The notes under the pieces are model-generated. The model was not told the DNA's origin, did not search any database, and saw only the letters and a program-made list of their open reading frames with translations. From contig JASTWF010000034.1 of the NCBI GenBank assembly GCA_030390025.1, positions 5,952,001 through 6,016,000 of the forward strand: 64,000 bases of DNA. The letters run 5' to 3'. The position numbers were made by a program, and so were the translations under genes. Each line of letters begins with the position of its first letter. The first letter of the stretch is position 1. This DNA is from Squalus acanthias (lineage: Eukaryota). Below are positions 16,001-61,400 of the stretch, piece after piece.

Positions 16001-16680
16001 TGGAGTCGGGTGTAGGCTAAGAGGGGGTAGTGAGGGACTGGAGTCAGGTGTAGACCCAGCCTGGGTTGTGAGGGACTGGAGTCAGGTGTAGACTCAGACC
16101 GGGTAATGAGGGACTGGAGTCAGGTGTGGGCCCAGACCGGGTAGTGGGGGACTGGAGTCGGGTGTAGGACCAGACCAGGTATTGAGGGACCGGAGTCAGG
16201 TGTAGGCCCAGACCAGGTATTGAGGGATCGGACTCAGGTGTAGGACCAGACCGGGTAGTGAGGGACTGGAGTCAGGTGTATACCCAGACCAGGTAGTGAG
16301 GGATTGGAGTGAGGTGCCAGCACAGACCAGGTAGTGAGAGACTGGAGTCAGGTATAGGCCCAGACCCAGTGGTGAAGGACTGGAGTGAGGAATGGACTCA
16401 GACCGGGTAGTGAGGGACTGGAGTCAGGTGTAGGCCCAGACCGGGTCGTGAGAGACTGGATTCAGCTGTAGGCCCAGTCTGGGTAGTGAGGGACTGGAGT
16501 CAGGAGTATACCCAGACTGAGATATGAGGGACTGGAGTCAGGTGTAGGACCAGACAAGGTATTTAGGGACATTAGTCAGGTGTATATCCGGACCAGATAT
16601 TGAGGTACTGGAGCAAGGTGCAGGCCCAGACCAGGTAGTGAGTGATTGGAGTGAGGTGCCGGCACAGACCAGGTAGTGAG
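4057..16680. repeat. 38-bp satellite (GGAGTCAGGTGTAGGCCCAGACCGGGTAGTGAGGGACT), left part, ~330 units
   Basis: GAGGGACTGG at 4091, 4129 and onward (period 38); G-rich + strand. Confidence 0.97.
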
Positions 16681-34700: not shown

Positions 34701-34925
34701 AAATGCAGATCTGTGATATATTTTAAATATATTCCATTATAATAAAAATTGGAAAGAATAATCTATGACCTGCTGTGTTCAACTGACTGGAATTAATAAC
34801 AAGCAGAGACAATTAGTTCCCATGGAGACTGGCATCAATTAGTCACTGAACGGCTGAAATTAACCCATTCTAGTCCGGCACCTTATATATCAAATAGAAA
34901 GTAGATTATTTTATATCTATATTAA
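28737..34925. repeat. AT-rich local segmental duplication: copy A ~28737-32060, copy B ~32060-34005, partial copy C ~34005-34925
   Basis: TAGTTATTAAAATGATCCTATTCT near 28737 and 32058; near-identical ORFs at 29212, 32537 and 34331. Confidence 0.92.
30655..31607. repeat. 41-bp minisatellite (CACTCATACTGTCACTACCCATCCAGGTTTATCACTGACCT), ~23 copies
   Basis: CACTCATAC at 30721, 30762 and onward (period 41). Confidence 0.95.
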
Positions 34926-34939
34926 AATAAGCTACAGAT

Positions 34940-34957
34940 TGGCGCCTAACGTGGGGC
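34940..34957 (+). promoter_or_regulatory. Primer-binding site, tRNA-Lys1,2 (CUU) type
   Basis: TGGCGCCTAACGTGGGGC, 17/18 match to the Lys1,2 PBS TGGCGCCCAACGTGGGGC; lies 3 nt after ...GCTACA. Confidence 0.9.
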
Positions 34958-34989
34958 TGTGACTATTAACTGAAACCAGGTCTATTGTG

Positions 34990-35981
34990 CATAGAAACAT
35001 AGAAGATAGGAGCAGGAGTAGGCCATTCGGCCCTCGAGCCTGCTCCGCCATTTAATGCGATCATGGCTGATCATCCAAATTCAGTACCCTGTCCCTGCTT
35101 TCTCCCCATATCCCTTGATCCCTTTAGCCTTAAGAAATATATCTAACTCCTTCTTGAATATATTTAATGAATTGGCCTCAACTGCCTTCTGTGGTAGAGA
35201 ATTCCACAGGTTCACCACTCTCTGGGTGAAGAAATTCCTCCTCATCTCAGTCCTAAATGGCTTACCCCTTATCCTTAGACTGTGACCCCTGGTTCTGGAC
35301 TCCCCCGCCATCGGGAACATCCTTCCTGCATCCAGTCTGTCTAGTCCTGTTAGAATTTTATAAGTTTCAATGAGAGCCCCTCTCACTCTTCTAAACTCTA
35401 GCGAGTATAAGCCCAATCGTCCCAATCTCTCTTCATACGTTATTCTTGCCATCCCAGGTATCAGTCTGGTGAATCTTCGCTGCACTCCCTCCATGGCAAG
35501 AACATCCTTCCTCAGATAAGGTAACTAAAACTGCACACAATACTCAAGGTGTGGTCTCACCAAGGCCCTGTACAACTGCAGCAAGACATCCTTGCTCCTG
35601 TACTCGAATCCTCTCGCTATGAAGGCCAACATACCATTTGCCTTCTTAACCACCTGCTGCACCTGCATGCTTACCTTCAGCGACTGGTGCACAAGGACTC
35701 CCAGGACTCGTTGCACTTCCTCTTTTCCCAATCTATTGCCGTTCAGATAATAATCTGTCTTCCTGTTTTTGCCACCAAAGTGGATAACCTCACATTTATT
35801 CACATTAAACTGCATCTGCCATGCATCTGCCCAATCACCCAACTTGTCCAAATCATACTGGAGTTTCTCTGCATCCTCCTCACAGCACACACGCCCACCC
35901 AGCTTTGTGTCGTCTGCAAACTTGGAGATATTACATCTAGTTCCCTCGTCTAGATCATTGATATATATTGTGAATAACTGG
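34990..35981 (-). mobile_element. 5'-truncated CR1 LINE inserted in the ERV leader
   Basis: FADDTKLGG...RRNFFTQRVVNLWNSLP on the minus strand (ORFs 35525..35890 and 35081..35494, one stop between them); tail CATAGAAACATAGAA. Confidence 0.95.
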
Positions 35982-36069
35982 CAGGCGCTTGGATTTTCGT
36001 CTGATCAACGCGAGTCCTTGTGGAAAGTTAGGTTATCTGACAGACAGTGTCACTTTAACGTACAGCAAG

Positions 36070-37158
36070 ATGTCGAGTGAGATTTTCTTTGTAGACTTTA
36101 AAACGAAGTTAATGAAGAAGTGGGAGGCTGCACAGTTCCAGACGTTAGTAGTAGAATGTCTAACAGAGGGTAAGAGAGTCTCCTTTGAGGACGTTGTTGC
36201 GCTCAGTGAGAAACAAGTTGAGGAGAAGAGATGGAAGCCAGATGGGGCAGTGCAGCGGATGGCCTCTGCGGCAGTGGATCGTGTCACCCAGCTAGAGGAC
36301 AATCAGAATCAATGAGAAAAAGACAAGCTGCGGCTGATTGAAGAGAATCTAAAGTTAACGGGCGAGAAGTCAAACTGGGAGAAAGAGGCTGCAGAGTTAA
36401 AGAGTAAAATTGAAGCTCTTCAGTCACCAAAATGAAGTTGTTCAGGGCCAGGTCGGGGCTTCGACAGCAATAATCCAGCAACAGCGCATTCATGCAGTTC
36501 ACACCGGCGCTGCAATGCTGAACCTTGAGGAGGCTCGGTGTCAGGTAGCCTCCTTAACAAAAGACAATGACCGTCTTACCAGACAATTAAATGATTCACC
36601 AGGAGCCCTAAGAGAGGCTCTTCAGCAGCCCCAAAGGGAGCCGGACCACAGACTGTGCCATATTACTATACAAGAGTTGGAAAACCAGCTGGGTAAACAA
36701 CGGGCTGTAATAGCGGCAGTCACGGGGGTAGACCACCCCCCCCGATTTATGATACAGAATGCGAGGGGTTCAGCGGAGAACTATATCCTCCCTTGCTACC
36801 CCCTCCCCAAAAGGCCCCCCATCTCGTATGCCACCATCGACCTGGCTAACCGGCCCCCCAGCCTATGCTGAGAACAATATCATGAAAACCTCAGTGGACG
36901 AGCCTGCACCCTTTAAAGCCTCAGTTAATGTTCGGCAGCTTTCCGCAATTACCAATCTAATTTTGAGGACAGTGATATGAAAAATGTTATACTGTCTGCC
37001 CTGACCCCGGACCTACGCACCAGTCTCCCCTTCATGGCCTTTAATGTGGGAACCCCCTGAATAACTTAATCACAACTACACAAACAGCTCTGGGGTTGGT
37101 CACTATTGATCTGGTTCAGAAATTAAACCAGTCTCAACAAGACCCCTGCTGCATTATC
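36070..37158 (+). pseudogene. Disrupted gag-like ORF: coiled-coil N-terminus, Pro-rich linker, truncated helical capsid-like part
   Basis: ATG 36070 MSSEIFFVDFK..; in-frame TGA at 36313 followed by EKDKLRLIEENLKL..EAAELKSKIEALQ; frameshift to ..LEEARCQVASLTKDNDRLTRQL..DHRLCHITIQELENQL; later DMKNVILSALTPDLRTSLP. Called gag mainly by position after the PBS. Confidence 0.6.
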
Positions 37159-39913
37159 ATAGAAAGTTACAGCCCATCGTGTCCGCGCCGGCCAACAAAA
37201 AGCTATCCAGCCTAATCCCACGTCCCAGCTCTTGGCCCGTAGCCCTGCAGGTTACAGCATCCCAAGTGCACATCCAAGTACTTTTTAAATGTGGTTAGGG
37301 TTTCTGCCTCTACCACCCTTTCAGGCAGTGAGTTCCAGACCCCCACAACCCTCTGGGGAAATTTCCCCTCAAATCCCCTCTAAACCTTCCACCAATTACT
37401 TTAAATCTGTGCCCCCTGGTTTTTGACCCCTCTGCTAACGGAAATAGGTCCTTTCTCTCCACTTTATCTCGGCCACTCATAATTTTATACACCTCAATAA
37501 GGTCTCCCCTCAGCCTCCTCTGTTCCAAGGAAAACAGACCCAGCCTATCCAGTCTTTCCTCATAGCTAAGATTCTCTACTCCCGGCAACATCCTTGTAAA
37601 TCTCCTCTGTACCCTCTCTAGTACAATCACATCTTTCCTGTAATGTGGTGACCAGAACTGCACGCAGTACTCTAGCTGAGGCCTAACCAGTGTTTTATAC
37701 AGTTGAAGCATAACCCCCCTGCTCTTGTATTCTGTGCCACGGCTAATAAAGGCAAGTATTCTGTATGCCTTCTTAACCACCTTATCTACCTGGCCTGCTA
37801 CCTTCAGGGATCTGTGGACATGCACTCCAAGGTCCCTTTGTTCCTCTACTCTACTCCGTATCCTACCATTTAATATGTCTTCCCTTTCCTTTTTAGCTCT
37901 CCCCAAATACATTATCTCACACTTCTCCGGATTAAATTCCTTTAACCACTGTTCTACCCACCTGACCAATTTATTGATATCTTCCTGCAGTCTGCAGCTT
38001 CCTTCTTCAGTATCAACCACACCGCCGATTTTAGTATCATCTGCAAACTTTTAATCATACCCCCTATATTCAAGTCTAGATCATTGATATATGCCACAAA
38101 AAGCAAGGGACCTAGTACTGAGCCCTGCGGAACCACACTGGAAACAGCCTTCCAGTCACAAAAACACACAGCAACCATTACCCTCTGCCTCTTGCCTCCG
38201 AGCCAGTTTTGAATCCAACTTGACACTTTGCCCTGGATCCCAAGGGCTTTTAACATCGTGACCAGTCTGTCATGTGGAACCTTATCAAAAGCCTTGCTGA
38301 AGTCCATATACACTACATCAAATGCACCACCCTCATCTACCCTCCTTGTTACCTCCTCAAAAAATTCAATCAAGTTTGTCAGACACGACCTTCCCTTAAC
38401 AAATCCGTGCTGACTATCCTTGATTAATCCGTGTCTTTCTAAATGAAGATTTATCCTGTCCTTCAGAATTATTTCCAATAATTTTCCCATCACCGAGGTT
38501 AGGCTGACTGGCCTGTAATTACTCGGTCTATCCTTTTCTACCTTTTTAGACAAGGGTACAACGTTAGCAGTCCTCCAGTACCACACCTGAAGCCAGAGAG
38601 GAAAATGATGGCCAGGGCCTCTGCTATTTCCTCTTTTGCTTCGCTTAACTGCCTGGGATACATTTCATCCGGGCCTGGGGATTTATCCACTTATAAAGCT
38701 GCTAAACCCCTTAATACTTCCTCTCTCACTATGTTTATTCCATCTAATATTTCACGCTCCCTGATAGCAATGTCTGCTTCGCCCCTCTCCTTTGTGAAAA
38801 CACACACAAAGTATTCATTAAGAACCCTACCAACGTCTCCCGCCTCCACACACAGATTGCCCTCACGATCTCTAATAGGCCCTACCCTTTCTTTAGTTAT
38901 CCTCTTACTCTTAATATATTTGTAAAACATCTTTGGGTTTTCCTTGATTTTACTTGAAAATAATTTTTCATGCTCTCTCTTTGCTTTCCTAATATCCTTT
39001 TTAATTGCACCCCTGCACTTTCTGTACTCCTCTAAAGATTCTGCAGTATTTAGCACTCGGTATCTGTCATACGCCTCCCTTTTTTTCTTTATCCGACCCT
39101 GTATGTCCCTAGACATCCTGGGGGCTCTAGATTTGTTAGTCCTACCTTTTTTCTTTAAGGGCATATATTTGGTCTGAACCCTCCGGATCTCCTCCTTGAA
39201 TGCCTTCCACTGCTCTGACACTGATTTACCTTCAAGTAGCTGTTTCCAGTCCACTATGGCTAAATCCCCTCTGAGCTCAGCAAAATTTGCTTTTCCCCAA
39301 TTTAGATTTTTTTTTCCTGGTCTATCCTTGTCCTTTTCCATAACTACCTTAAATCTAACAGAATTATGGTCACCAGCACCAAAATGCTCCCCCACTGATA
39401 CGCCTTCTACCTGCCCAGCTTCATTCCCTAAAACTAAGTCCAGAACCGCCTCCTCCCTTGTTGGGCTTGCTATATACTGGCTAAAAAAGTTCTCCTGGAT
39501 GCATTTTAGGAATTCCGCACCTTCTATATCCTTCACACTAATTTTATCCCAGTTAATATTGGGGTAGTTGAAATCCCCTACCATTACTGCCCTATAGTTT
39601 ATGCACTTCTCAGAAATGTGTCTACATATTTGCTCTTCTATCTCCCTCTCACTGTTTGGGGGTCTATAGTACACTCCCAGCAGTGTGATCGCCCCTTTTT
39701 TGTTTATCAATTCGACCCATATGGCCTCGTTTGATGATCCCTCCAACATACCATCCCTCCTCACAGCTGTAATAGTTTATTTAAACAATACCAGGACCCC
39801 CCCTCCCTTTTTACCTCCCTCTCTATCCCGTCTGAAAATCCTGTAACCAGGAATGTTGAGCTGCCATACCTGCCCCTCTTTCAGCCACGTCTCTGTAATA
39901 GCCAAGTATTTAC
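37159..39913 (-). mobile_element. CR1 LINE of a second subfamily, most of ORF2 with frameshifts, between gag and env
   Basis: AITETWL, GVYYRPP, GDFN, MDFSKAFD and VPQGSVLGP motifs in ORFs 37310-40016; flanked by CATTATC at 37152-37158 and 39914-39920. Confidence 0.95.
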
Positions 39914-40779
39914 CATTATCTGGACTAATACTACAAATTCCTAGTCTAATGAATCGAACCAGGCCCAACCCCTTATTTAGAATAGAGAATATAGGAGTTG
40001 TAAAAGGAAATACCATTAACCGATTTCTCAGGGCACCACAATGGTTAGTACAGTTAGAAAAACTAACATGGATTGAACCAAACCTACAAGGATGTAGTAC
40101 AAATGAGGATGCCGTTGTTTGCCCATACAGTTTGTACGATCATTCAAAGCACACCTGTGGGTATGGTTGGAATGAAGAAAGGTTAAACTGTACTATGGAA
40201 GTGACAGGCCCCTCAGATGTAAGAACTAGAACAACCTACGTACGAGAAGGGAGATATTGTTTTACCACTTTAGAGAGCTCCTATAGTCAGGGAACACTTG
40301 AATGTTCAATAACCCCAGGAACCTACTGTATCAGACCTACTAAGACTACGGTAATAGGAGGAAGGATTCTCCTTGCAGTAGCCTCACATGACCAGCAGGT
40401 ATTACAAGTAGAGGATGATTTAAATATAAATCTGGAAGATTATGTCACTAAATTCGGATATGATATCCCCAAGCTACCTGAAGCCTTAACCGAATTAATA
40501 AATCAGGTGAGCACCTCCCAACGCCATTACTATACACTGGTGCAAGGGAATGAAGCCGTAGCCAAGAAAATTCCAGGTATCGAAAATCAAACACACTGGT
40601 GGGACATAGGGACAAACATGGAAATTCCTCCTTGGATTAGGGTAATTTCCCATGTACTGGTCATCACCCAACTTGTAGTACTGACATGCTTACTATTCTA
40701 CACCTGCTACCTGAAACACCTGATGTACAAAACCCGTTTAAATATGATCACAACCCGGAATATCTTCAGAGTTACATAA
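39914..40779 (+). pseudogene. C-terminal ~290 codons of a class I fusion-type envelope, frame open to the stop
   Basis: Cys spacing C-x8-C-x11-C-x10-C-x22-C; heptad-like LPEALTELINQVSTSQRHYYTLVQGNEAVAKKI; membrane-proximal WW; TM ISHVLVITQLVVLTCLLFYTCYL; short basic tail; sequons NRT, NCT, NQT. Confidence 0.85.
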
Positions 40780-40856
40780 ACATGGGAGAACAAACCCATA
40801 TGTAAGATTTTCGTTATGAGGGGTCGGAAAAATGCCTCGCCCTCAAGGTAGGGATC

Positions 40857-41552
40857 TGTAGGATAGAGTGTCCCTGTAGGATTTAGTAAACATTATTAAG
40901 ATTCTATAACCATTTTTATATAACTATAATATGTGAAGTTGTATGTTAAAAACCTAAACAGCCTGTATAAAATGGCGAATGACTGAGACCAAAGCAGGAT
41001 GGGAATTTTGCCAACCTGACTAAACTCTGTTAGAAATTGATGTAATTCTGTTAAATGGCTTGTTAAGTACACAAGGAGACAGTGGGAAACAAGAAATTCA
41101 GCAGCATTGCAAACGAAGATAGAGGGCTGGAGACAGTCACCACTCATAAATACAGAACCGGCTAAGCAATGAGCTGATTAAAAAGCGAAAAGACATCTGT
41201 GGGAATTTAGTGTGAAGGTTGTTCTCAGATCAGGATAGCTTGCTTACTAACTGCCACGTAGGCAAAACGGAGGAAAAAAAAGTAATAAATGAACAGCTAT
41301 TGAACACCGAAAGCAGCGCAAAACCAGAGGATGAGAAGCTTCAGTCAACAGAACACAGCAAGAGAAGAGAGATACTCGGAAGGAACGCTGGGGTACAATG
41401 AACAGACTGCGACAATCTTCTTGTTAAGCATTACTTCTTTGTACTGGATATTTAATGCTTAATAAACCTGTTTTAATTATACACAATATACCTGTACCCA
41501 GAGTGGCTTGTATAGTCACAGACAAATCAATTCAGAGCATTTAAAAGCTACA
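40857..41552 (+). mobile_element. 3' LTR (~696 bp)
   Basis: TGTAG...CTACA termini, preceded by purine-rich AAGGTAGGG-ATC; AATAAA at 41461; TATA-like TATAAAA near 40966. Confidence 0.85.
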
Positions 41553-42230
41553 TTCTAACACTCTCTGAAATACGCCACACCCCTCACTGTAAGACAGATA
41601 TACTCCACACCACTCACTGTAACACTGATATACCCCACACCCCTCACTGTAACACTGATATACCCCACACCCCTCACTGTAACACTGATATACCCCACAC
41701 CCCTCACTGTAACACTGATATACCCCACACCCCTCACTGTAACACTGATATACCCCACACCCCTCACTGTAACACTGATATACCCCACACCCCTCACTGT
41801 AACACTGATATACCCCACACCCCTCACTGTAACACTGATATACCCCACACCCCTCACTGTAACACTGATATACCCCACACCCCTCACTGTAACACTGATA
41901 TACCCCACACCCCTCACTGTAACACTGATATACCCCACACCCCTCACTGTAACACTGATATACCCCACACCCCTCACTGTAACACTGATATACCCCACAC
42001 CCCTCACTGTAACACTGATATACCCCACACCCTCACTGTAACACTGATATACCCCACACCCCTCACTGTAACACTGATATACCCCACACCCCTCACTGTA
42101 ACACTGATATACCCCACACCCCTCACTGTAACACTGATATACCCCACACCCCTCACTGTAACACTGATATACCCCACACCCCTCACTGTAACACTGATAT
42201 ACCCCACACCCCTCACTGTAACACTGATAT
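41553..42230. repeat. Near-perfect 30-bp satellite, C-rich strand (CCCTCACTGTAACACTGATATACCCCACAC)
   Basis: Identical 30-mers running up to the gap. Confidence 0.97.
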
Positions 42231-42730
42231 NNNNNNNNNNNNNNNNNNNNNNNNNNNNNNNNNNNNNNNNNNNNNNNNNNNNNNNNNNNNNNNNNNNNNN
42301 NNNNNNNNNNNNNNNNNNNNNNNNNNNNNNNNNNNNNNNNNNNNNNNNNNNNNNNNNNNNNNNNNNNNNNNNNNNNNNNNNNNNNNNNNNNNNNNNNNNN
42401 NNNNNNNNNNNNNNNNNNNNNNNNNNNNNNNNNNNNNNNNNNNNNNNNNNNNNNNNNNNNNNNNNNNNNNNNNNNNNNNNNNNNNNNNNNNNNNNNNNNN
42501 NNNNNNNNNNNNNNNNNNNNNNNNNNNNNNNNNNNNNNNNNNNNNNNNNNNNNNNNNNNNNNNNNNNNNNNNNNNNNNNNNNNNNNNNNNNNNNNNNNNN
42601 NNNNNNNNNNNNNNNNNNNNNNNNNNNNNNNNNNNNNNNNNNNNNNNNNNNNNNNNNNNNNNNNNNNNNNNNNNNNNNNNNNNNNNNNNNNNNNNNNNNN
42701 NNNNNNNNNNNNNNNNNNNNNNNNNNNNNN
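42231..42730. other. Assembly/scaffolding gap (500 N)
   Basis: Run of exactly 500 N; satellite orientation flips across it. Confidence 0.99.
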
Positions 42731-50040: not shown

Positions 50041-53000
50041 TGTAGCTTTTAAATGCTCTGAATTGATTTGTCCGTGACTATACAAGCCACTCTGGGTACA
50101 GGAATATTGTGTATAATTAAAACAAGTTTATGAAGCATTAAATATCCATTACAAAGAAGTAATGCTTAACAAGAAGATTGTTGCAGTCTGTTCATTGTAC
50201 CCCAGCGTTCCTTCGAGTATCTCTCTTCTCTTGCTGTGTTCTGTTGACTGAAGCTTCTCATCCTCTGGTTTTGCGCTGCTTTCGGTGTTCAATAGCTGTT
50301 CATGTATTAGTTTTTTTCCTCCGTTTTGCCTACGTGGCAATTAGTAAGCAAGCTATCCTGATCTGAGAACAACCTTCACACTAAATTCGCACAGATGTCT
50401 TTTCGCTTTTTAATCAGCTCATTGCTCGGCCGGTTCTGCATTTATGAGTGGTGACTGTCTCCAGCCCTCTATCTTCATTTGCAATGTTGCTGAATGTCTT
50501 GTTTCCCACTGTCTCCTTGTGTACTTAACAAGCCATTTAACAGAATTATATCAATTTCTAACAGAGTTTAGTCAGGTTGGCATAATTCCCATCCTGCTTT
50601 GGTCTCAGCCATTTGCCATTTTATACAGGCTGTTTAGGTTTTTAACATACAACTTCACATATTATAGTTATATAAAAATGGTTATAGAATCTTAATAATA
50701 TTTACTAAATCCTACAGGGACAGTCTATCCTTCAGATCCCTACCTTGAGGGCGAGGAATTTTTCCGACCCCTCATAACGAAAATCTTACATATGGGTTTG
50801 TTCTCCCATGTTTATGTAACTCTGAAGATATTCCGGGTTGTGATCATATTTAAACGGGTTTTGTACATCAGGTGTTTCAGGTAGCAGGTGTAGAATACTA
50901 AGCATATCAGTACTACAAGTTGGGTGATGACCAGTACATGGGAAATTACCCTAATCAAGGAGGAATTTCCATGTTTGTCCCTGTGTCCCACCAGTGTGTT
51001 TGAGCTTCGATACCTGGAATTTTCTTGGCTACGGCTTCATTCCCTTGCAGCAGTGTATAGTAATGGCGTTGGGAGGTGCTCACCTGATTTATTAATTCGG
51101 TTAAGGCTTCAGTTAGCTTGGGGATATCATATCCGAATTTAGTCACATAATCTTCTAGATTTATATTTAAATCATCCTCTACTTGTAATACCTGCTGGTC
51201 ATGTGAGGCTACTGCAAGGAGAATCCTTCCTCCTATTACTGTAGTCTTAGTAGGTCTGATACAGTAGGTTCCTGGGGTTATTGAAGATTCAAGTGTTCCC
51301 TGACTATAGGAGCTCTCTAAAGTGGTCAAACAATATCTCCCTTCTCGTACGTAGGTTGTTCTAGTTCTTACATCTGAGGGGCCTGTCACTTCCATAGTAC
51401 AGTTTAACCTTTCTTCATTCCAACCATACCCACAGGTGTGCTTTGAATGATCCTACAAACTGTATGGGCAAATAAGGACTTCCTCATTTGTACTAAATCC
51501 TTGTAGGTTTGGTTCAATCCATGTTAGTTTTTCTAACTGTACTAACCATTGTGGTGCCCTGAGAAATCGGTTAATGGTATTTCCTTTTACTACTCCTATA
51601 TTCTCTTTTCTAAATAAGGGGTTGGGCCTGGTTCGATTCATTAGACTAGGAATTTGTAGTATTAGTCCAGATAATGGTAAATACTTGGCTATTACAGAGA
51701 CGTGGCTGAAAGAGGAGCAGGTATGGCAGCTCAACATTCCTGGTTACAGGATTTTCAGACGGGATAGAGAGTGAGGTAAAAAGGGAGGGGGGGTCCTGGT
51801 ATTGTTTAAATAAACTATTACAGCTGTGAGGAGGGATGGTATGTTGGAGGGATCATCAAACGAGGCCATATGGGTCGAATTGATAAACAAAAAAGGGGCG
51901 ATCACACTGCTGGGAGTGTATTATAAACCCCCAAACAGTGAGAGGGAGATAGAAGAGCAAATATGTAGACACATTTCTGAGAAGTGCATAAACTATAGGG
52001 CAGTAATGGTAGTGGATTTCAACTACCCCAATATTAACTGGGATAAAATTAGTGTGAAGGAAAGAGAAGGTGCATAATTCCTAAAATGCATCCAGGAGAA
52101 CTTTTTTAGCCAGTATGTAGCAAGCCCAACAAGGGAGCAGGCAGTTCTGGACTTAGTTTTAGGGAATGAAGCTGGGCAGGTAGAAGGCGTATCAGTGGGG
52201 GAGCATTTTGGTGCTGGTGACCATAATTCTGTTAGATTTAAGGTAGTTATGGAAAAGGACAAGGATAGACCAGGAAAGAAAAATCTAAATTGGGGAAAAG
52301 CAAATTTTGCTGAGCTGAGAGGGGATTTAGCCATAGTGGACTGGAAACAGCTACTTGAAGGTAAATCAGTGTCAGAGCAGAGGAAGGCATTCAAGGAGGA
52401 GATCCGGAGGGTTCAGACCAAATATATGCCCTTAAAGAAAAATGGTAGGACTAACAAATCTAGAGCCCCCAGGATGTCTCGGGACATACAGGGTCAGATA
52501 AAGAAAAAAAGGGAGGCGTATGACAGATACCGAGGGCTAAATACCGCAGAATCTTTAGAGGAGTACAGAAAGTACAGGGGTGCAATTAAAAAGGATATTA
52601 GGAAAAAAAAGAGAGAGCATGAAAAATTATTTTCAAGTAAAATCAAGGAAAACCCAAAGATGTTTTACAAATATATCAAGAGTAAGAGGATAACTAAAGA
52701 AAGGGTAGGGCCTATTAGAGATCGTGAGGGCAATCTGTGTGTGGAGGCGGGATACGTTGGTAGGGTTCTTAATGAATACTTTGTGTGTGTTTTCACAAAG
52801 TAGAGGGGCGAAGCAGACATTGCTATCAGGGAGCGTGAAATATTAGATGGAATAAACATAGTGAGAGAGGAAGTATTAAGGGGTTTAGCAGCTTTATAAG
52901 TGGATAAATCCCCAGGCCCGGATGAAATGTATCCCAGGCAGTTAAGCGAAGCAAAAGAGGAAATAGCAGAGGCCCTGGCCATCATTTTCCTCTCTGGCTT

Positions 53001-53901
53001 CAGGTGTGGTACTGGAGGACTGCTAACGTTGTACCCTTGTCTAAAAAGGTAGAAAAGGATAGACCGAGTATTTACAGGCCAGTCAGCCTAACCTCGGTGA
53101 TGGGAAAATTAATGGAAATAATTCTGAAGGACAGGATAAATCTTCATTTAGAAAGACACGGATTAATCAAGGATAGTCAGCACGGATTTGTTAAGGGAAG
53201 GTCGTGTCTGAAAAACTTGATTGAATTTTTTGAGGAGGTAACAAGGAGGGTAGATGAGGGTGGTGCATTTGATGTAGTGTATATGGACTTCAGCAAGGCT
53301 TTTGATAAGGTTCCACATGACAGACTGGTCACGATGTTAAAAGCCCTTGGGATCCAGGGCAAAGTGTCAAGTTGGATTCAAAACTGGCTCGGAGGCAAGT
53401 AGCAGAGGGTAATGGTTGCTGTGTGTTTTTGTGACTGGAAGGCTGTTTCCAGTGTGGTTCCGCAGGGCTCAGAACTAGGTCCCTTGCTTTTTGTGGCATA
53501 TATCAATGATCTAGACTTGAATATAGGGGGTATGATTAAAAGTTTGCAGATGATACTAAAATCGGCGGTGTGGTTGATACTGAAGAAGGAAGCTGCAGAC
53601 TGCAGGAAGATATCAATAAATTGGTCAGGTGGGCAGAACAGTGGCAAATGGAATTTAATCCGGAGAAGTGTGAGATAATGTATTTGGGGAGAGCTAAAAA
53701 GGAAAGGGAAACATATTAAATGGTAGGATACGGAGTAGAGTAGAGGAACACATAGACCTTGGAGTGCATGTCCACAGATCCCTGAAGGTAGCAGGCCAGG
53801 TAGGTAAGGTGGTTAAGAAGGCATACAGAATACTTGAAATAACAACAGAAAACGCTGGAAAAACTCAGCAGGCCAGGCAGCATCCGTGGAGAGAGAAAGA
53901 G

Positions 53902-53938
53902 AGTTAACGTTTCAGGTCGATGACCTTTCATCAGAACT
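53902..53938 (-). ncRNA. Minimal type I hammerhead ribozyme in the PLE terminal region
   Basis: Reverse complement of 58425-58461. Confidence 0.75.
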
Positions 53939-54215
53939 GGGAAGAGCCGGAAATCAAATAGATTTAAGGCCAGGGTAAAGCTGGGAAAAGGGGGAGGGGA
54001 TAAAGGAACAAAAGGAGAGATGAAGAGACATTAAGAGACATTAAGAGATATGCAAGGCTAGAGGTGGTGTTAATGTGACAGATTAAGGCTGAATGAAGTG
54101 TGAAATCCACTGGCAGAATGAAGGACAGCTGCCAGCTTCTAGGAGGAAAAAAAAGGTGGGGGGGGACAAATAAAAGGGTGGATAAAATAAAATATAAATG
54201 TGATTGGAGCTGAGG

Positions 54216-56120
54216 TTATGATCTAAAATTGTTGAACTCGATATTGAGTCCAGAGGGCTGTGGGCTGCCTAAACGAAAGATGAGGTGCTGTTCCTCGAGC
54301 TTACGCTGAGCTTCCGTGGAACAGTGTAATAGGCCGAGGACGGTGAGGTCAGAGTGGGAGTGAAGCGGTGAATTAAAGTGACAGGCCACCGGGAGCTCGG
54401 GGTCCCCCTTACGGACTGAACGGAGGTGTTCCGCAAAGCGGTCACCCAATCTGCGTTTGGTCTCCCCAATGTAGAGGAGTCCACATCGTGAGCAGCGAAT
54501 ACAGTATACTAAATTGCAGGAAGTACAAGTAAATCGCTGTTTCACCTGGAAGGGGTGTTTGGGGCCCTGGACAGTGGGAAGAGGGGATGTATAAGGGCAT
54601 GTGTTGCATCTCCTGCGCGTGCACGGGAAGGTGCCGGGCGAAGGGGAAGGGGTGCTGGGGGTGGTAGAGGAGTGGACTAGGGTGTCGCGGAGGGAGCGGT
54701 CCCTACGGAATGCTGAAAGGGGAGGTGAGGGGAAGATGTGTTTGGTGGTGGGATCACGCTGGAGGTGGCGGAAATGGCGGAGGATGATCCGTTGAATGTG
54801 GAGGCTGGTGGGGTGAAAGGTGAGGACAAGGGGAACCCTATCGTGGTTCCGGGAGGGAGGGGCAGGGGTGAGGGCAGATGTGCGGGAGATAGAACGGACA
54901 CGGTCGAGGGCCGTGTCGACCACGGTAGAGGGGAATCCTCGGTTGAGGAAAAAGGAAGACATGTCGGAAGCACTGGTATGGAAGGTGGCATCATAAGAGC
55001 AGATGCGGCGGAGACGGAGAAACTGGGAGAATGGAATAGAGTCCTTACAGGAGGCGGGGTGGGAGGAAGTGTAGTCCAGGTAGCTGTGGGAGTCGGTGGG
55101 CTTGTAGTGAATGTTAGTCAATAACCTATCCCCAGAGATGGAGATGGAGAAGTCGAGGAAGGGAAGGGAAGAGTCGGAGATGGACCATGTGAAGGTGAGG
55201 GAAGGGTGGAAATTGGAAGCATAGTGAATGAAATGTTCTAGTTCAGGGTGAGAGCAGGAGACGGCAACGATACAGTCATCAATGTACCGGAAAAAGAGGT
55301 GAGGGAGGGGACCCGAGTAGGACTGGAACAAAGAGTGTTCCACATATCCCACGAAAAGGCAGGCATAGCTAGGACCCATGCGGGTACCCATAGCAACACC
55401 TTTAATTTGGAGGAAATGGGTAGAATCAAAGGAGAAGTTGTTCAATGTGAGAACAAGTTCAGCCAGGCGGAGGAGGGTGGTGGTGGATGGGGACTGGTTG
55501 GGCCTCTGTTCAAGGAAGAAGCGGAGCGCCCTCAGGCCATCCTGGTGGGGAATGGAGGTGTAGAGGGATTGTACGTCCATAGTGAAGAGGAGACGGTTGG
55601 GGCCGGGAAACTGGAAACTGTTAAAATGGCGGAGGGCATCGGAAGAGTCGCGGATGTAGGTGGGAAGAGACTGGACAAGGGGAGAAAAAATAGAGTCGAG
55701 ATAGGAAGAGATAAGTTCCGTGGGGCAAGAACAGGCTGAAACGATGGTTCTACCGGGGCAGTCCTGTTTGTGGATCTTGGGAAGGAGGTAGAAGCGGGCT
55801 GTGCGGGGTTGGGGAACTATGAGGTTGGCGGCCGTGGGGGGAAGATCTCCAGAGGAGATAAGGTCAGTGACAGTCTTGGACACGGTGGCTTGATGTTCGG
55901 TAGTGGGGTCATGGTCCAGGTGGAGGTAGGAGGAGGTCTCAGAGAGTTGGCGTTCAACTTCCGCTAGGTTGAGGTCGCTTCGCCAAACAACAACAGCGCC
56001 ACCCTTGTCAGCAGGTTTAATGACAATGTCAGGGTTGGATCGGAGAGAATGGAGTGCTGCAAGTTCAGAGGGAGGTAGGTTGGAGTGAGTGAGGGGAGCA
56101 GAGAAATTGAGCTGGCCGAT
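54216..56120 (-). CDS. PLE RT + Cys linker + GIY-YIG endonuclease, open frame, N-terminally deleted
   Basis: KPADKGG, LPKIHK, MDVQSLYTSIP, GVAMG, RYIDD, CTRRRCNTC, LVYCIRC..LYIGET. Confidence 0.88.
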   Translation of the reverse strand: MGQLNFSAPLTHSNLPPSELAALHSLRSNPDIVIKPADKGGAVVVWRSDLNLAEVERQLSETSSYLHLDHDPTTEHQATVSKTVTDLISSGDLPPTAANLIVPQPRTARFYLLPKIHKQDCPGRTIVSACSCPTELISSYLDSIFSPLVQSLPTYIRDSSDALRHFNSFQFPGPNRLLFTMDVQSLYTSIPHQDGLRALRFFLEQRPNQSPSTTTLLRLAELVLTLNNFSFDSTHFLQIKGVAMGTRMGPSYACLFVGYVEHSLFQSYSGPLPHLFFRYIDDCIVAVSCSHPELEHFIHYASNFHPSLTFTWSISDSSLPFLDFSISISGDRLLTNIHYKPTDSHSYLDYTSSHPASCKDSIPFSQFLRLRRICSYDATFHTSASDMSSFFLNRGFPSTVVDTALDRVRSISRTSALTPAPPSRNHDRVPLVLTFHPTSLHIQRIILRHFRHLQRDPTTKHIFPSPPLSAFRRDRSLRDTLVHSSTTPSTPSPSPGTFPCTRRRCNTCPYTSPLPTVQGPKHPFQVKQRFTCTSCNLVYCIRCSRCGLLYIGETKRRLGDRFAEHLRSVRKGDPELPVACHFNSPLHSHSDLTVLGLLHCSTEAQRKLEEQHLIFRLGSPQPSGLNIEFNNFRS

Positions 56121-56317
56121 GGACTGATCGTTCGGAGTCAGAGAGGGGAAGGTCAGAGGGGATAGTGAAAACGCGGCAGGGGGTGAGATTGGGAGAAGTG
56201 GGGTCAGAGGAAAGTGAAGGGGAAGAAGGTTCCGGAGGGGCTTTAGATTCCAAGAATTGTTGAAGCTTGCGATCCTTGACATCGGAAAGGAAGAAGAAAA
56301 CCCTGACATTGTCAAAA

Positions 56318-58147
56318 CTCCGATCCAACCCTGACATTGTCATTAAACCTGCTGACAAGGGTGGCGCTGTTGTTGTTTGGCGAACCGACCTCTACCTAGC
56401 GGAAGTTGAACGCCAACTCTCTGACACCTCCTCCTACCTCCACCTGGACCATGACCCCACTACCGAACATCAAGCCACCGTGTCCAAGACTGTCACTGAC
56501 CTTATCTCCTCTGGAGATCTTCCCCCCACGGCCGCCAACCTCATAGTTCCCCAACCCCGCACAGCCCGCTTCTACCTCCTTCCCAAGATCCACAAACAGG
56601 ACTGCCCCGGTAGACCCATCGTTTCAGCCTGTTCTTGCCCCACGGAACTTATCTCTTCCTATCTCGACTCTATTTTTTCTCCCCTTGTCCAGTCTCTTCC
56701 CACCTACATCCGCGACTCTTCCGATGCCCTTCGCCATTTTAACAGTTTCCAGTTTCCCGGCCCCAACCGTCTCCTCTTCACTATGGACGTACAATCCCTC
56801 TACACCTCCATTCCCCACCAGGATGGCCTGAGGGCGCTCCGCTTCTTCCTTGAACAGAGGCCCAACCAGTCCCCATCCACCACCACCCTCCTCCGCCTGG
56901 CTGAACTTGTTCTCACATTGAACAACTTCTCCTTTGACTCTACCCATTTCCTCCAAATTAAAGGTGTTGCTATGGGTACCCGCATGGGTCCTAGCTATGC
57001 CTGCCTTTTCGTGGGATATGTGGAACACTCTTTGTTCCAGTCCTACTCGGGTCCCCTCCCTCACCTCTTTTTCCGGTACATTGATGACTGTATCGGTGCC
57101 GTCTCCTGCTCTCGCCCTGAACTAGAACATTTCATTCACTATGCTTCCAATTTCCACCCTTCCCTCACCTTCACATGGTCCATCTCCGACTCTTCCCTTC
57201 CCTTCCTCGACTTCTCCATCTCCATCTCTGGGGATAGGTTATTGACTAACATTCACTACAAGCCCACCGACTCCCACAGCTACCTGGACTACACTTCCTC
57301 CCACCCCGCCTCCTGTAAGGACTCTATTCCATTCTCCCAGTTTCTCCGTCTCCGCCGCATCTGCTCTGATGATGCCACCTTCCATACCAGTGCTTCCGAC
57401 ATGTCTTCCTTTTTCCTCAACCGAGGATTCCCCTCTACCGTGGTCGACACGGCCCTCGACCGTGTCCGTTCTATCTCCCGCACATCTGCCCTCACCCCTG
57501 CCCCTCCCTCCCGGAACCACGATAGGGTTCCCCTTGTCCTCACCTTTCACCCCACCAGCCTCCACATTCAACGGATCATCCTCCGCCATTTCCGCCACCT
57601 CCAGCGTGATCCCACCACCAAACACATCTTCCCCTCACCTCCCCTTTCAGCATTCCGTAGGGACCGCTCCCTCCGCGACACCCTAGTCCACTCCTCTACC
57701 ACCCCCAGCACCCCTTCCCCTTCGCCCGGCACCTTCCCGTGCACGCGCAGGAGATGCAACACATGCCCTTATACATCCCCTCTTCCCACTGTCCAGGGCC
57801 CCAAACACCCCTTCCAGGTGAAACAGCGATTTACTTGTACTTCCTGCAATTTAGTATACTGTATTCGCTGCTCACGATGTGGACTCCTCTACATTGGGGA
57901 GACCAAACGCAGATTGGGTGACCGCTTTGCGGAACACCTCCGTTCAGTCCGTAAGGGGGACCCCGAGCTCCCGGTGGCCTGTCACTTTAATTCACCGCTT
58001 CACTCCCACTCTGACCTCACCGTCCTCGGCCTATTACACTGTTCCACGGAAGCTCAGCGTAAGCTCGAGGAACAGCACCTCATCTTTCGTTTAGGCAGCC
58101 CACAGCCCTCTGGACTCAATATCGAGTTCAACAATTTTAGATCATAA
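56318..58147 (+). CDS. PLE RT + Cys linker + GIY-YIG endonuclease, open frame, 5'-truncated (no native start)
   Basis: Same motifs in ORF 56267..58147; genuine PLE sequence starts at LRSNPDIVIK. Confidence 0.9.
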   Translation, partial: LRSNPDIVIKPADKGGAVVVWRTDLYLAEVERQLSDTSSYLHLDHDPTTEHQATVSKTVTDLISSGDLPPTAANLIVPQPRTARFYLLPKIHKQDCPGRPIVSACSCPTELISSYLDSIFSPLVQSLPTYIRDSSDALRHFNSFQFPGPNRLLFTMDVQSLYTSIPHQDGLRALRFFLEQRPNQSPSTTTLLRLAELVLTLNNFSFDSTHFLQIKGVAMGTRMGPSYACLFVGYVEHSLFQSYSGPLPHLFFRYIDDCIGAVSCSRPELEHFIHYASNFHPSLTFTWSISDSSLPFLDFSISISGDRLLTNIHYKPTDSHSYLDYTSSHPASCKDSIPFSQFLRLRRICSDDATFHTSASDMSSFFLNRGFPSTVVDTALDRVRSISRTSALTPAPPSRNHDRVPLVLTFHPTSLHIQRIILRHFRHLQRDPTTKHIFPSPPLSAFRRDRSLRDTLVHSSTTPSTPSPSPGTFPCTRRRCNTCPYTSPLPTVQGPKHPFQVKQRFTCTSCNLVYCIRCSRCGLLYIGETKRRLGDRFAEHLRSVRKGDPELPVACHFNSPLHSHSDLTVLGLLHCSTEAQRKLEEQHLIFRLGSPQPSGLNIEFNNFRS

Positions 58148-58424
58148 CCTCAGCTCCAATCACATTTATATTTTATTTTATCCACCCTTTTATTTGTCCC
58201 CCCCCACCTTTTTTTTCCTCCTAGAAGCTGGCAGCTGTCCTTCATTCTGCCAGTGGATTTCACACTTCATTCAGCCTTAATCTGTCACATTAACACCACC
58301 TCTAGCCTTGCATATCTCTTAATGTCTCTTAATGTCTCTTCATCTCTCCTTTTGTTCCTTTATCCCCTCCCCCTTTTCCCAGCTTTACCCTGGCCTTAAA
58401 TCTATTTGATTTCCGGCTCTTCCC

Positions 58425-58461
58425 AGTTCTGATGAAAGGTCATCGACCTGAAACGTTAACT
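58425..58461 (+). ncRNA. Minimal type I hammerhead ribozyme in the PLE terminal region
   Basis: AGTT-CTGATGA-A-AGGTC atc GACCT-GAAA-CGTT-AACT: both core boxes, 5-bp stem II, AGTT/AACT stem I, palindromic ACGT stem III. Confidence 0.78.
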
Positions 58462-60335
58462 CTCTTTCTCTCTCCACGGATGCTGCCTGGCCTGCTGAGT
58501 TTTCCCAGCGTTTTCTGTTGTTATTTCGGATTTCCAGCATCCGCAGTATTTTGCTATCATACAGAATACTTGCCTTTATTAGCCGTGGCACAGAATACAA
58601 GAGCAGGGGGGTTATGCTTCAACTGTATAAAACACTGGTTAGGCCTCAGCTAGAGTACTGCGTGCAGTTCTGGTCATCACATTACAGGAAAGATGTGATT
58701 GTACTAGAGAGGGTACAGAGGAGATTTACAAGGATGTTGCCGGGAGTAGAGAATCTTAGCTATGAGGAAAGACTGGATAGGCTGGGTCTGTTTTCCTTGG
58801 AACAGAGGAGAGACCTTATTGAGGTGTATAAAATTATGAGTGGCCGAGATAAAGTGGAGAGAAAGGACCTATTTCCGTTAGCAGAGGGGTCAAAAACCAG
58901 GGGGCACAGATTTAAAGTAATTGGTGGAAGGTTTAGAGGGGATTTGAGGGGAAATTTCCCCAGAGGGTTGTGGGGGTCTGGAGCTCACTGCCTGAAAGGG
59001 TGGTAGAGGCAGAAATCCTAACCACATTTAAAAAGTACTTGGATGTGCACTTGGGATGCTGTAACCTGCAGGGCTACGGACCAAGAGTTGGGACGTGGGA
59101 TTAGGCTGGATAGCTCTTTGTTGGCCGGCGCGGACACGATGGGCTGTAACTTTCTATGATAATGCAGCAGGGGTCTTGTTGAGACTGGTTTAATTTCTGA
59201 ACCAGATCAATAGTGTCCAACCCCAGAGCTGTTTGTGTAGATGTGATTAAGTTATTCAGGGGGTTCTCCACATTAAAGGCCATGAAGGGGAGACTGGTGC
59301 GTAGGTCCGGGGTCAGGGCAGACAGTATAACATTTTTCATATCACTGTCCTCAAAATTAGATTGGTAATTGCGGAAAGCTGCCGAACATTAACTGAGGCT
59401 TTAAAGGGTGCAGGCTCGTCCACTGAGGTTTTCATGATATTGTTCTCAGCATAGGCTGGGGGGCCTCTTAGCCAGGTCGATGGTGGCATACGAGATGGGG
59501 GCCTTTTTGGGAGGGGGTAGCAAGGGAGGATATAGTTCTCCGCTGAACCCCTCGCATTCTGTATCATAAATCGGGGGGGTGTGGTCTACCTCCGTGACTG
59601 CCGCTATTACAGCCCGTTGTTTACCCAGCTGGTTTTCCAACTCTTGTATAGTAATATGGGACTGTCTGTGGTCCGGCTCCCTTTGGGGCTGCTGAAGAGC
59701 CTCTCTTAGGGCTCCTGGTGAATCATTTAATTGTCTGGTAAGACGGTCATTGTCTTTTGTTAAGGAGGCTACCTGACACCGAGCCTCCTCAAGGTTCAGC
59801 ATTGCAGCGCCAGTGTGAACTGCATGAATGCGCTGTTGCTGGATTATTGCTGTCGAAGCCCCGACCTGGCCCTGAACAACTTCATTTTGGTGACTGAAGA
59901 GCTTCCATTTTATTCTTTAACTCTGCAGCCTCTTTCTCCCAGTTTGACTTCTCGCCCGTTAACTTTAGATTCTCTTCAATCAGCCGCAGCTTGTCTTTTT
60001 CTCATTGATTCTGATTGTCCTCTAGCTGGGTGACACGATCCACTGCCGCAGAGGCCATCCGCTGCACTGCCCCATCTGGCTTCCATCTCTTCTCCTCAAC
60101 TTGTTTCTCACTGAGCGCAACAACGTCCTCAAAGGAGACTCTCTTATCCTCTGTTAGACATTCTACTACTAACGTCTGGAACTGTGCAGCCTCCCACTTC
60201 TTCATTAACTTCGTTTTAAAGTCTACAAAGAAAATCTCACTCGACATCTTGTTGTACGTTAAAGTGACACTGTCTGTCAGATAACCTAACTTTCCACAAG
60301 GACTCGCGTTGATCAGACGAAAATCCAAGCGCCTG

Positions 60336-61336
60336 CCAGTTGTTCACAATATATATCAATGATCTAGACGAAGGAACTAGATGTAATATCTCCAAGTTTG
60401 CAGACGACACAAAGCTGGGTGGGCGTGTGTGTTGTGAGGAGGATGCAGAGAAACTCCAGTATGATTTGGACAAGTTGGGTGATTGGGCAGATGCATGGCA
60501 GATGCAGTTTAATGTGAATAAATGTGAGGTTATCCACTTTGGTGGCAAAAACAGGAAGACAGATTATTATCTGAATGGCAATAGATTGGGAGAAGGGGAA
60601 GTGCAACGAGACCTGGGTGTCCTTGTGCACCAGTCGCTGACGGTAAGCATTCAGGTGCAGCAGGCGGTTAAGAAGGCAAATGGTATGTTGGCCTTCATAG
60701 AGAGAGGGTTCGAGTACAGGAGCAAGGATGTCTTGCTGCAGTTGTACAGGGCCTTGGTGAGACCACACCTTGCGTATTGTGTGCAGTTTTGGTCACCTTA
60801 TCTGAGGAAGGATGTTCTTGCCATGGAGGGAGTGCAGCGAAGATTCACCAGACTGATACCTGGGATGGCAGGAATGACGTATGAAGAGAGATTGGGACGA
60901 TTGGGCTTATACTCGCTAGAGTTTAGAGGAATGAGAGGGGATCTCATTGAAACTTATACAATTCTAACAGGACTAGACAGACTAGATGCAGGAAGGATGT
61001 TCCCGATGGCGGGGGAGTCCAGAAACAGGGGTCACAGTCTAAGGATAAGGGGTAAAACATTTAGGACTGAGATGAGGAGGAATTTCTTCACCCAGAGAGT
61101 GGTAAACCTGTGGAATTCTCTTCCACAGAAGGCAGTAGAGGCCAATTCATTAAATATATTCAAGAAGGAGTTAGATATATTTCTTAAGGCTAAAGGGATC
61201 AAGGGATATGTGGAGAAAGCAGGTACAGGGTACTGAATTTGGATGATCAGCCATGATCGCATTGAATGGCGGAGCAGGCTCGAGGGGCCGAATGGCCTAC
61301 TCCTGCTCCTATCTTCTATGTTTCTATGTTTCTATG
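60336..61336 (+). mobile_element. Mirror copy of the CR1 at 34990-35981, ORF fragment uninterrupted here
   Basis: ORF 60340..61236; tail has three CTATG units versus two in the left copy. Confidence 0.95.
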
Positions 61337-61400
61337 CACAATAGACCTGGTTTCAGTTAATAGTCACAGCCCCACGTTAGGCGCCAATCTGTAGCTTATT

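Follow-up and report, generated by a model that had tools for sequence, protein, structure and literature searches.

Positions 34929..41552 of a 64,000-nucleotide stretch of the Squalus acanthias genome (the window; contig JASTWF010000034.1 of GCA_030390025.1) raise the question of which retroviral lineage carries an envelope resembling F, the paramyxo- and pneumovirus fusion protein. The original prediction had read this interval as a lokiretrovirus-like element, probably from a cartilaginous fish, that could fill a gap in the host range of lokiretroviruses, which were found in none of six Chondrichthyes genomes (Wang and Han, 2020, Fig. S1; PMC7947760). The host is indeed a cartilaginous fish, and the interval is a genuine endogenous retrovirus remnant: every part named earlier (LTR tip, primer-binding site [PBS], gag-like and env-like frames, polypurine tract and TG..CA LTR) was found where it had been placed (Table 1). 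The element is broken and dead, one of the many copies of an endogenous retrovirus family. Very probably, this pol-deleted, LINE-interrupted copy derives from a virus with a reverse transcriptase (RT) within Retroviridae proper, likely related to snakehead retrovirus (SnRV), and with an envelope predicted to be F-type.

Table 1. Parts of the broken provirus, its insertions and its twin, in window coordinates
Feature	Position	Strand	Remarks
5' LTR tip	34929..34936	+	Last 8 nt; match to whole-length copies begins at 34929
PBS, tRNA-Lys(CTT) (Lys1,2)	34940..34957	+	17/18 match; 3 nt after LTR end
LINE 1, 5'-truncated, RT C-terminal part	34994..35981	-	RVT_1 E 6.6e-6; sits in leader
Leader and 5' half of gag	35982..37155	+	gag ATG at 36070
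LINE 2, endonuclease fragment and RT	37156..39921	-	Exo_endo_phos_2 E 1e-9, RVT_1 E 4.5e-24
env 3' third	39922..40779	+	Cys-rich F1-like beta domains, HRB-like helix, TM anchor, short tail
Polypurine tract, short	40845..40854	+	2 nt 5' of LTR; layout shared with L042 and L065
3' LTR, TG..CA, 696 bp	40857..41552	+	5' LTRs of whole copies begin with the same letters
Inverted twin of broken element	50041..61397	-	97.6% identical

The 5' LTR end recognised earlier is present but reduced to about 8 nt; the remainder is absent, the tip is fused to a host repeat unit of ~940 bp, and uninterrupted units of this repeat (33142, 29818 and 63184) run on differently past the junction. The Lys1,2 assignment of the PBS was confirmed by identity at 17 of 18 positions to the 3' end of the tRNA-Lys(CTT) genes of the same genome, which we located by pattern because a tRNA family search yielded only Lys(TTT) genes (12 loci checked). 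A pattern search for the LTR tip plus PBS gave 33 matches, versus none in the reversed control. Together, the two minus-strand LINEs make up 57% of the element interval. We take the first, from its 3' tail, to be CR1-like, and saw no target duplication around it on comparing the junction with copies L045 and L067. The second occupies the place of ~5.9 kb of missing provirus, comprising the 3' end of gag, all of pro-pol and the 5' two-thirds of env, and its junction with the provirus is spanned by a contig from an independent DNA run (X7 record 25). The remaining gag, with gag-like frames at 35974-36315 and 36401-36871, is damaged by stops, frameshifts and an internal deletion of ~219 nt, and its zinc knuckle region is gone.

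The env-like frame of the original prediction is open to 40779, but only the 3' third of env is kept: the first 25 codons of the 310-codon frame (39847-40779) are antisense LINE sequence, with genuine env beginning at 39922 (286 codons). Its cysteines, at residues 83, 92, 104, 115, 138, 153 and 161 of the frame, follow the C-x8-C-x11-C-x10-C-x22-C spacing claimed earlier, with a TM helix close to the end. It is most improbable that this frame is a co-opted host gene. The frame is open across all 286 env codons, with an ATG upstream within the LINE-antisense sequence; however, the fragment lacks a signal peptide, a furin site and a fusion peptide, all four of the other near-identical duplicates (94-98% amino acid identity) carry stops in env, and its dN/dS against close family copies (0.38-0.43) is similar to that among other dead copies. 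The open frame is likely a chance survivor without function.

Whole-length copies, which the original prediction had proposed seeking genome-wide, were found elsewhere in the genome with the layout gag(CCHC)-stop-PR-RT-tether-RH-IN-env, their Pfam domains lying in order. At least 135 matches to Env were counted (E ≤ 1.8e-62), 135 out of 10,047 candidates having been scored. Gag matched zf-CCHC (E 7e-7) and, weakly, Gag_p30, and the gag frame ends in one in-frame TGA before pol. Pol has a YVDD catalytic motif and matches to both RT_RNaseH and RNase_H, that is, the dual RNase H (tether and RH) common to all retroviruses. A 4-bp target duplication flanked five of six copies, and the PBS varied among copies. 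Eleven between-subgroup pairs gave env dN/dS values of 0.15-0.30, and the family env is under purifying selection. The same Env family is present in sharks, one skate and frogs, with matching host range. Of seven relatives with ~60% RT identity in genome G000, five have nothing left of an F-type env but its final ~100 codons; no env was seen within the stretch examined for the other two (L053 and L056), and the ISD motif of gamma-type Env was not found in the seven.

The window Env alone gave no matches in Pfam or PDB sequence searches. The predicted fold of the family Env matched paramyxo- and pneumovirus F in Foldseek (E 1e-10), in support of the F-like Env claimed earlier, although the model's pTM was only 0.53 and TM-scores were ~0.4. 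Foamy-virus, WDSV and WEHV Envs were also structural matches, and the top BFVD match was an entry without a name (A0A384ZVF2). The fold would be shared with F proteins of PF00523, such as those of hPIV3 (1ztm), NDV (3maw) and RSV (3rki), and the order of parts is that of F: F2, furin site, fusion peptide, HRA, Cys-rich region, HRB and TM. Identity to F is 12-15%, with no Pfam match to Fusion_gly, and none of 7,350 candidates matched when the longer family Env was used in a word-based search of proteins. As originally claimed, gamma-type motifs were absent: neither Env sequence scanned (P0001 and P0002) contains an ISD, CX6CC or CXXC motif, and TLV_coat gave no match. We regard the family Env as a predicted paramyxo/pneumovirus-F-type fusion protein. 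Between the signal peptide and the F2-like part it is predicted to carry an Ig-like domain (Atlas 0.94; PDB profile match at E 0.28; against these, a single-sequence fold of the N-terminus reached a pLDDT of only 33), which is deleted from the window copy. The family Env bears its own N-terminal head, whereas paramyxo- and pneumoviruses use a separate attachment protein.

The family RT lies inside Retroviridae proper, not with lokiretroviruses. In the RT tree it fell within the Retroviridae-proper branch (97/98), with the Loki-type clade separate (100/99), and it fell inside Retroviridae proper (SH 99 and 100/99) in two RT-plus-tether trees, a quick 47-row tree and a 31-row LG+G4 tree, the latter used for AU tests. 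The Loki clade excluded the family at 100/99-100 in four trees; Loki labels reflect motif identity, read by eye, to one published Loki Pol (Loki-Oja), and the RT trees contained no ERV-L or CmiERV sequence. AU tests rejected a grouping of the query with Loki (RT plus tether, p 4e-6) and of the whole lineage with Loki (p 2e-4); with RT alone, rejection of query plus Loki was not reached (p 0.19). Family RTs are 37-41% identical to Loki-type RTs, compared to 55-62% for frog and coelacanth ERV RTs, and the nine found carry LPQG (eight) or LLQG (one), never the PFG of Loki RTs. In the integrase tree, which had no CGIN1 row, the family grouped with a Xenopus ERV (100/99) and Loki stood apart (100/99); deeper nodes were weak. 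The best solved-structure match of the family RT was foamy Pol (E 1e-53, versus 1e-37 for Ty3). Membership in Ty3/gypsy or BEL is contradicted by the dual RNase H and by separation from the gypsy outgroup at 100/100, in trees without BEL rows. A segment that resembled the family Pol (L040:78-1697) proved to be a nested Ty3/gypsy element and was excluded from all trees.

These placements largely refute the idea that the family is a lokiretrovirus, the first in a cartilaginous fish, and we consider it very improbable, although several features had pointed that way. The envelope of family copies is laid out as described for lokiretroviruses (Wang and Han, 2020), with a signal peptide, an RXKR site, a fusion peptide, a coiled coil and a TM, and it resembles Mononegavirales F; compared by eye alone, its motifs line up one after another with those of the published Loki-Oja Env. 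Family copies also share with lokiretroviruses dual RNase H and a coiled-coil N-terminal Gag region, and Loki-type integrases show 43-48% identity to that of the family. However, the F-like Env that the original prediction took as a lokiretrovirus hallmark is not exclusive to that group, because the SnRV Env matches the family Env profile and foamy-virus Env shares the fold (PMC11468914). The Lys PBS, another difference from lokiretroviruses, is likewise not diagnostic, since family copies differ in PBS. In addition, Gag of the family has a CCHC knuckle and a terminal stop, whereas Loki-Oja has a single Smc-Gag-Pol frame, and the family Env is ~250-300 aa longer N-terminally than Loki Env, with the predicted Ig-like domain in that part. 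A search of G000 for a Loki RT motif gave 0 matches, which, for one exact motif, does not show the absence of Loki. The window element does not fill the Chondrichthyes gap in the lokiretrovirus host range.

The family likely belongs to an SnRV-related (class III-like) assemblage. Like the family, SnRV, which Xu et al. (2018; PMC6001957) place with its relatives in "clade Huo", has a single CCHC, gag-stop-pol in one frame and YVDD; the single CCHC and in-frame gag stop are seen in its record (L115). The SnRV Env, also without ISD or CX6CC, was homologous to the family Env by profile (A2; 26.8 bits, E 3.6e-10 among four ORFs, against 0.2 bits for the reversed sequence and at most 5.9 bits in 300 block shuffles), and the Gags show weak homology (E 2e-7). 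By contrast, the SnRV RT (P0019; by eye, the same as the RT to which the PMC9040795 supplement gives that name) is only 46% identical to the family RT and was its sister in no tree; no free tree joined the two directly, and AU did not reject the constrained grouping (p 0.056). SnRV also differs in ending gag with TAG rather than TGA, in its longer Env (a 1134-aa frame with several furin sites), in an additional segment that separates RH from IN in Pol, in a 3' accessory frame, and in its PBS, which is nearly identical to that of a related element in the genome that holds the window (L052). CmiERV lineage I of elephant shark, grouped with SnRV by Han (2015; PMC4422223), is a 9.6-kb chondrichthyan provirus with a coiled-coil-type Gag and one CCHC, like the family. 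Read by eye, its RT, tether and IN motifs are near those of the family and its gag likewise ends in PQ then TGA; its Env, however, is gamma-type, with ISD and CX6CC. Its PBS, presumably Ser-type, differs from that of the family.

An endogenous foamy virus or a fish foamy-like ERV is an improbable identity for the family. Its Gag has a CCHC knuckle, a feature absent from foamy Gag (PMC8278194, Table 2), and gag and pol lie in the same frame, unlike the foamy layout. A grouping of the lineage with SFV, itself a long branch, was rejected by AU (p 0.039), and the RT motifs were unlike those of AciFLERV, AliFLERV and DrFV-2 by eye. Foamy Env (Fernandez et al., 2024; PMC11468914; PDB 8rm0/8rm1) has its receptor-binding domain between the subunits, whereas the extra domain of the family Env is N-terminal. 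We also weighed XtERV-S as the closest element so far described and discarded it: ERV-L/XtERV-S traits, as listed in PMC8278194, are YIDD, a dUTPase at the pol end, a 5-bp target duplication and no CCHC, whereas the family has YVDD, a 4-bp duplication (5/6) and no dUTPase match in the scanned Pol frames.

Because the family Pol groups with ordinary retroviruses, F-type envelopes were probably commoner across retroviruses than has been assumed. Wang and Han (PMC7947760), who could see no resemblance of Loki Env to the Envs of other retroviruses, for that reason left four scenarios for how retroviral Env arose. We give slightly less than even chances to a reading in which the F-fold Env with its own Ig-like head is native to a widespread SnRV-related lineage (sharks, rays and frogs), and in which one ancestral retroviral F-type Env also gave rise to the Loki, foamy, SnRV and walleye epsilonretrovirus Envs, being replaced later by gamma-type Env, as in CmiERV-I; if true, this would select among the four scenarios. 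A rather less likely account is a recombinant that joined Retroviridae-proper gag-pol to an env captured late from a lokiretrovirus or an F-bearing RNA virus. ERVs commonly acquire env from elsewhere (PMC10536682), the family Env resembles Loki Env by eye, and CmiERV-I, which pairs a close Pol with a gamma-type Env, implies Env exchange on a shared Pol lineage. Late capture is harder to reconcile with one Env family of matching host range in sharks, skate and frogs, with its detectability in SnRV Env, with the foamy, WDSV and WEHV structural matches and with the result that none of the 53 profile matches carries the two Loki-Oja Env motifs scanned for. An old shared origin is thus the simpler account, and a single ancient capture would still fit. 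A Retroviridae-proper family whose Env combines an F core of Loki size, a tie to SnRV Env and structural matches to foamy and walleye-virus Envs makes the idea of F-type as ancestral and gamma-type as later testable by trees and structures, and the Env family in sharks, skate and frogs therefore provides material for such tests. We found no published description of an SnRV-related Env as F-like; PMC9044940 (anamniote Env diversity) and PMC9972966 (cartilaginous-fish foamy elements) lay outside this comparison. What gives the finding its value is that a retroviral lineage other than the foamy viruses has an F-fold Env; taken alone, the locus is a dead copy of an ordinary kind.

The parent virus would have primed reverse transcription with tRNA-Lys, as the PBS indicates, and integrated with the 4-bp target duplication seen in most copies. 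Gag-Pol may have been made by read-through of the single in-frame TGA, and Env may have bound a receptor via the Ig-like head before F-type refolding. Because env is under purifying selection, we infer that the family spread through germ-line reinfection. The window copy would have been stripped of its 5' LTR, have taken up two LINEs, have had ~5.9 kb deleted and have been duplicated along with its surroundings. The inverted twin belongs to a segmental duplication; its env carries stops and a frameshift, and it has an extra insertion at 53837-58557.

The element at 34929–41552 is a real, dead ERV copy. All of the originally predicted parts (LTR end, PBS, gag-like and env-like ORFs, PPT and LTR) are present in the interval, the env cysteine spacing is as first given, and the proposed Lys1,2 PBS, at 34940–34957, shares 17 of its 18 positions with genomic tRNA-Lys(CTT) genes. 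Mapping on whole-length copies showed that 8 nt of the 5' LTR are left, joined to a host repeat unit, that gag carries stops, frameshifts and a ~219-nt deletion, and that env sequence picks up again at 39922, following a LINE. A contig from an independent DNA run spans this LINE-env junction; we regard the deletions and insertions in this copy as established. No target duplication is readable here because the 8-nt 5' LTR tip is fused to the host repeat. The block has been duplicated, as an inverted twin in the window (50041–61397, minus strand; 97.6% identity) and as three other copies at 96–98.6%, and the twin and all three others have stops in env. The window copy is probably without present function. 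One duplicate (L088) has an additional LINE at the LINE-env junction.

Features of the element and its surroundings in the window
Feature	Position	Detail
Large minisatellite arrays flanking duplicated block	4067-28737, 41565-50028	38-bp unit, ~647 copies; 30- and 65-bp units
Further LINE, same kind	16655-19287	long open frames; within 38-bp array
Host unit, ~940 bp	28884-29818, 32208-33142, 34004-34939, 63184-63999	93-94% identity between repeats
First LINE	34994-35981	
Second LINE	37156-39921	replaces ~5.9 kb of provirus
3' LTR	40857-41552	TG..CA, 696 bp
N gap	42232-42729	
Insertion in inverted twin	53836-58527	two 2,210-nt arms, 100% complementary, 272 nt between

We found at least 135 matches to the Env remnant in the source genome (135 scored from 10,047 candidates), split into groups at ~53–100% and ~40% identity, and sampled the family through 40 stretches of sequence surrounding matches to Env or RT. 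Full-length relatives, which the original prediction had proposed seeking, do exist: whole copies are ~9.6 kb, in the order LTR, PBS, Gag, protease, RT (YVDD), tether, RNase H, integrase, env, LTR. Gag has a helical N-terminal region and one CCHC knuckle, and gag and pro-pol share one frame with a TGA between them (6 of 6 junctions found); by analogy with known gamma- and epsilonretroviruses, Gag-Pol would be made by read-through of this TGA. Of 10 copies tried, both ends could be located in six, and five of these are flanked by a 4-bp target duplication. The LTRs, PBS, PPT, target duplication, domain order and gag stop are direct observations. PBS types across copies are Lys1,2, Lys3 (matching tRNA-Lys(TTT) genes) and a third that we take to be Arg; the differing PBSs within one family (copies L042, L062, L065–L067 and L101) suggest primer switching. 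LTR pairs of five copies differ by K2P 0.016–0.054 over 631–796 nt, equivalent to 16–54 My at 0.5e-9, the rate applied in PMC10699275, or 36–122 My at 2.2e-10, from PMC4422223. Nested in family copies are a Ty3/gypsy RT-RH (L040:78–1697) and a DDE_Tnp_4 transposase (L056:6051–7490).

The verdict on the element is an F-type Env without lokiretrovirus membership, and it bears on where retroviral Env came from. The nearest Pols to the family RT, at 51–58%, are from Xenopus tropicalis, Latimeria and frogs. Loki-type Pols came from a separate search and were identified through motifs of the published Loki-Oja Pol; P0019 was assigned to snakehead retrovirus (SnRV) via a published alignment. Trees used 59 and 44 of ~180 Pol proteins, picked to span groups, with ERV-L and elephant-shark ERVs (CmiERV) absent. 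In the 61-row RT tree, the Loki-type sequences form a clade (100/99) that is sister to a retrovirus clade (97/98), as in Wang & Han (PMC7947760). The family RT lies inside the retrovirus clade, outside that of the lokiretroviruses, and RT+tether and integrase trees agree, so the lokiretrovirus assignment falls. AU tests of the query with lokiretroviruses gave p 0.19 for RT alone and p 4e-6 for RT+tether; joining the nine-row lineage to lokiretroviruses, the foamy virus SFV or SnRV gave p 2e-4, 0.039 and 0.056, respectively. Based on the trees and AU tests, we conclude that the family is a retrovirus proper, likely among class III-like groups.

An SnRV-like record (L115; 99% to P0019) resembles the family in its single CCHC and its in-frame stop between gag and pol. 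Its Env scored 26.8 bits against the family profile, compared with 0.2 bits for the reversed sequence and 5.9 bits for the best of 300 block shuffles (161 listed). CmiERV lineage I, grouped with SnRV by Han 2015 (PMC4422223), resembles the family by eye in the sequence context of the gag end and in its motifs in RT, tether and IN, and its env has an ISD and CX6CC. These two comparisons indicate that F-type and gamma-type Envs are both likely to occur on the family's Pol lineage.

The claim of an F-type Env was upheld, with the F fold itself predicted from a model. An Ig-like head is also predicted, and would bind receptor; Env may be cleaved by furin and, by analogy with F and foamy Env (PMC11468914), would refold F-like to a six-helix bundle. 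Structural matches of the Env model in BFVD include the Env of WEHV-1 (E 1e-8) and that of WDSV (E 3e-7), and this model-based comparison suggests that exogenous epsilonretrovirus Env is also F-type. Searching the family Env profile against PDB gave a weak match to HERV-K chain 9nnd in the TM-side region (E 5e-4).

No unbroken env, signal peptide through TM, was found among the family copies examined. Env dN/dS was 0.15–0.30 between subgroups (11 pairs) and 0.34–0.59 within them; 45 pairs were computed, of which distant-group pairs were nearly all saturated and one covered 17 codons. These values indicate purifying selection on env while the family spread, a result we likewise regard as established, and the selection points to spread by reinfection. 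Five related ERVs (L052, L054, L055, L057 and L070; ~60% RT identity) keep gag-pol, with the F-type env reduced to its last ~100 codons and LTR pairs at K2P 0.018–0.024; they are likely env-deleted derivatives spreading intracellularly. L054 is a tandem array.

Alpha-globin exons of the source genome scored 71–82 bits against 1cg5 (stingray) and the shark haemoglobins 1gcv and 3mkb (PMC3795541), compared with ~45 bits per domain against human alpha-globin. Together with the Env homologues and a genome size of 3.7 Gb, these scores make an elasmobranch host likely. Frogs have many near-identical full-length (675–677 aa) members of the Env family, and the clusters of P0153 (Mantella) and P0162 (Bombina) are young lineages. 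Env C-terminal pieces are seemingly fused into predicted host proteins P0142, P0137 and P0132 (Heterodontus fbxo15 isoform, cadherin and Niban-like), representing either gene-model artefacts or exonisation.

In the window, the ERV remnant is attached to the end of one copy of the ~940-bp host unit; no coding role was identified for this unit. The insertion in the inverted twin has long RT-like frames, presumably Penelope-like by motif, and is either very recent or an assembly artefact.
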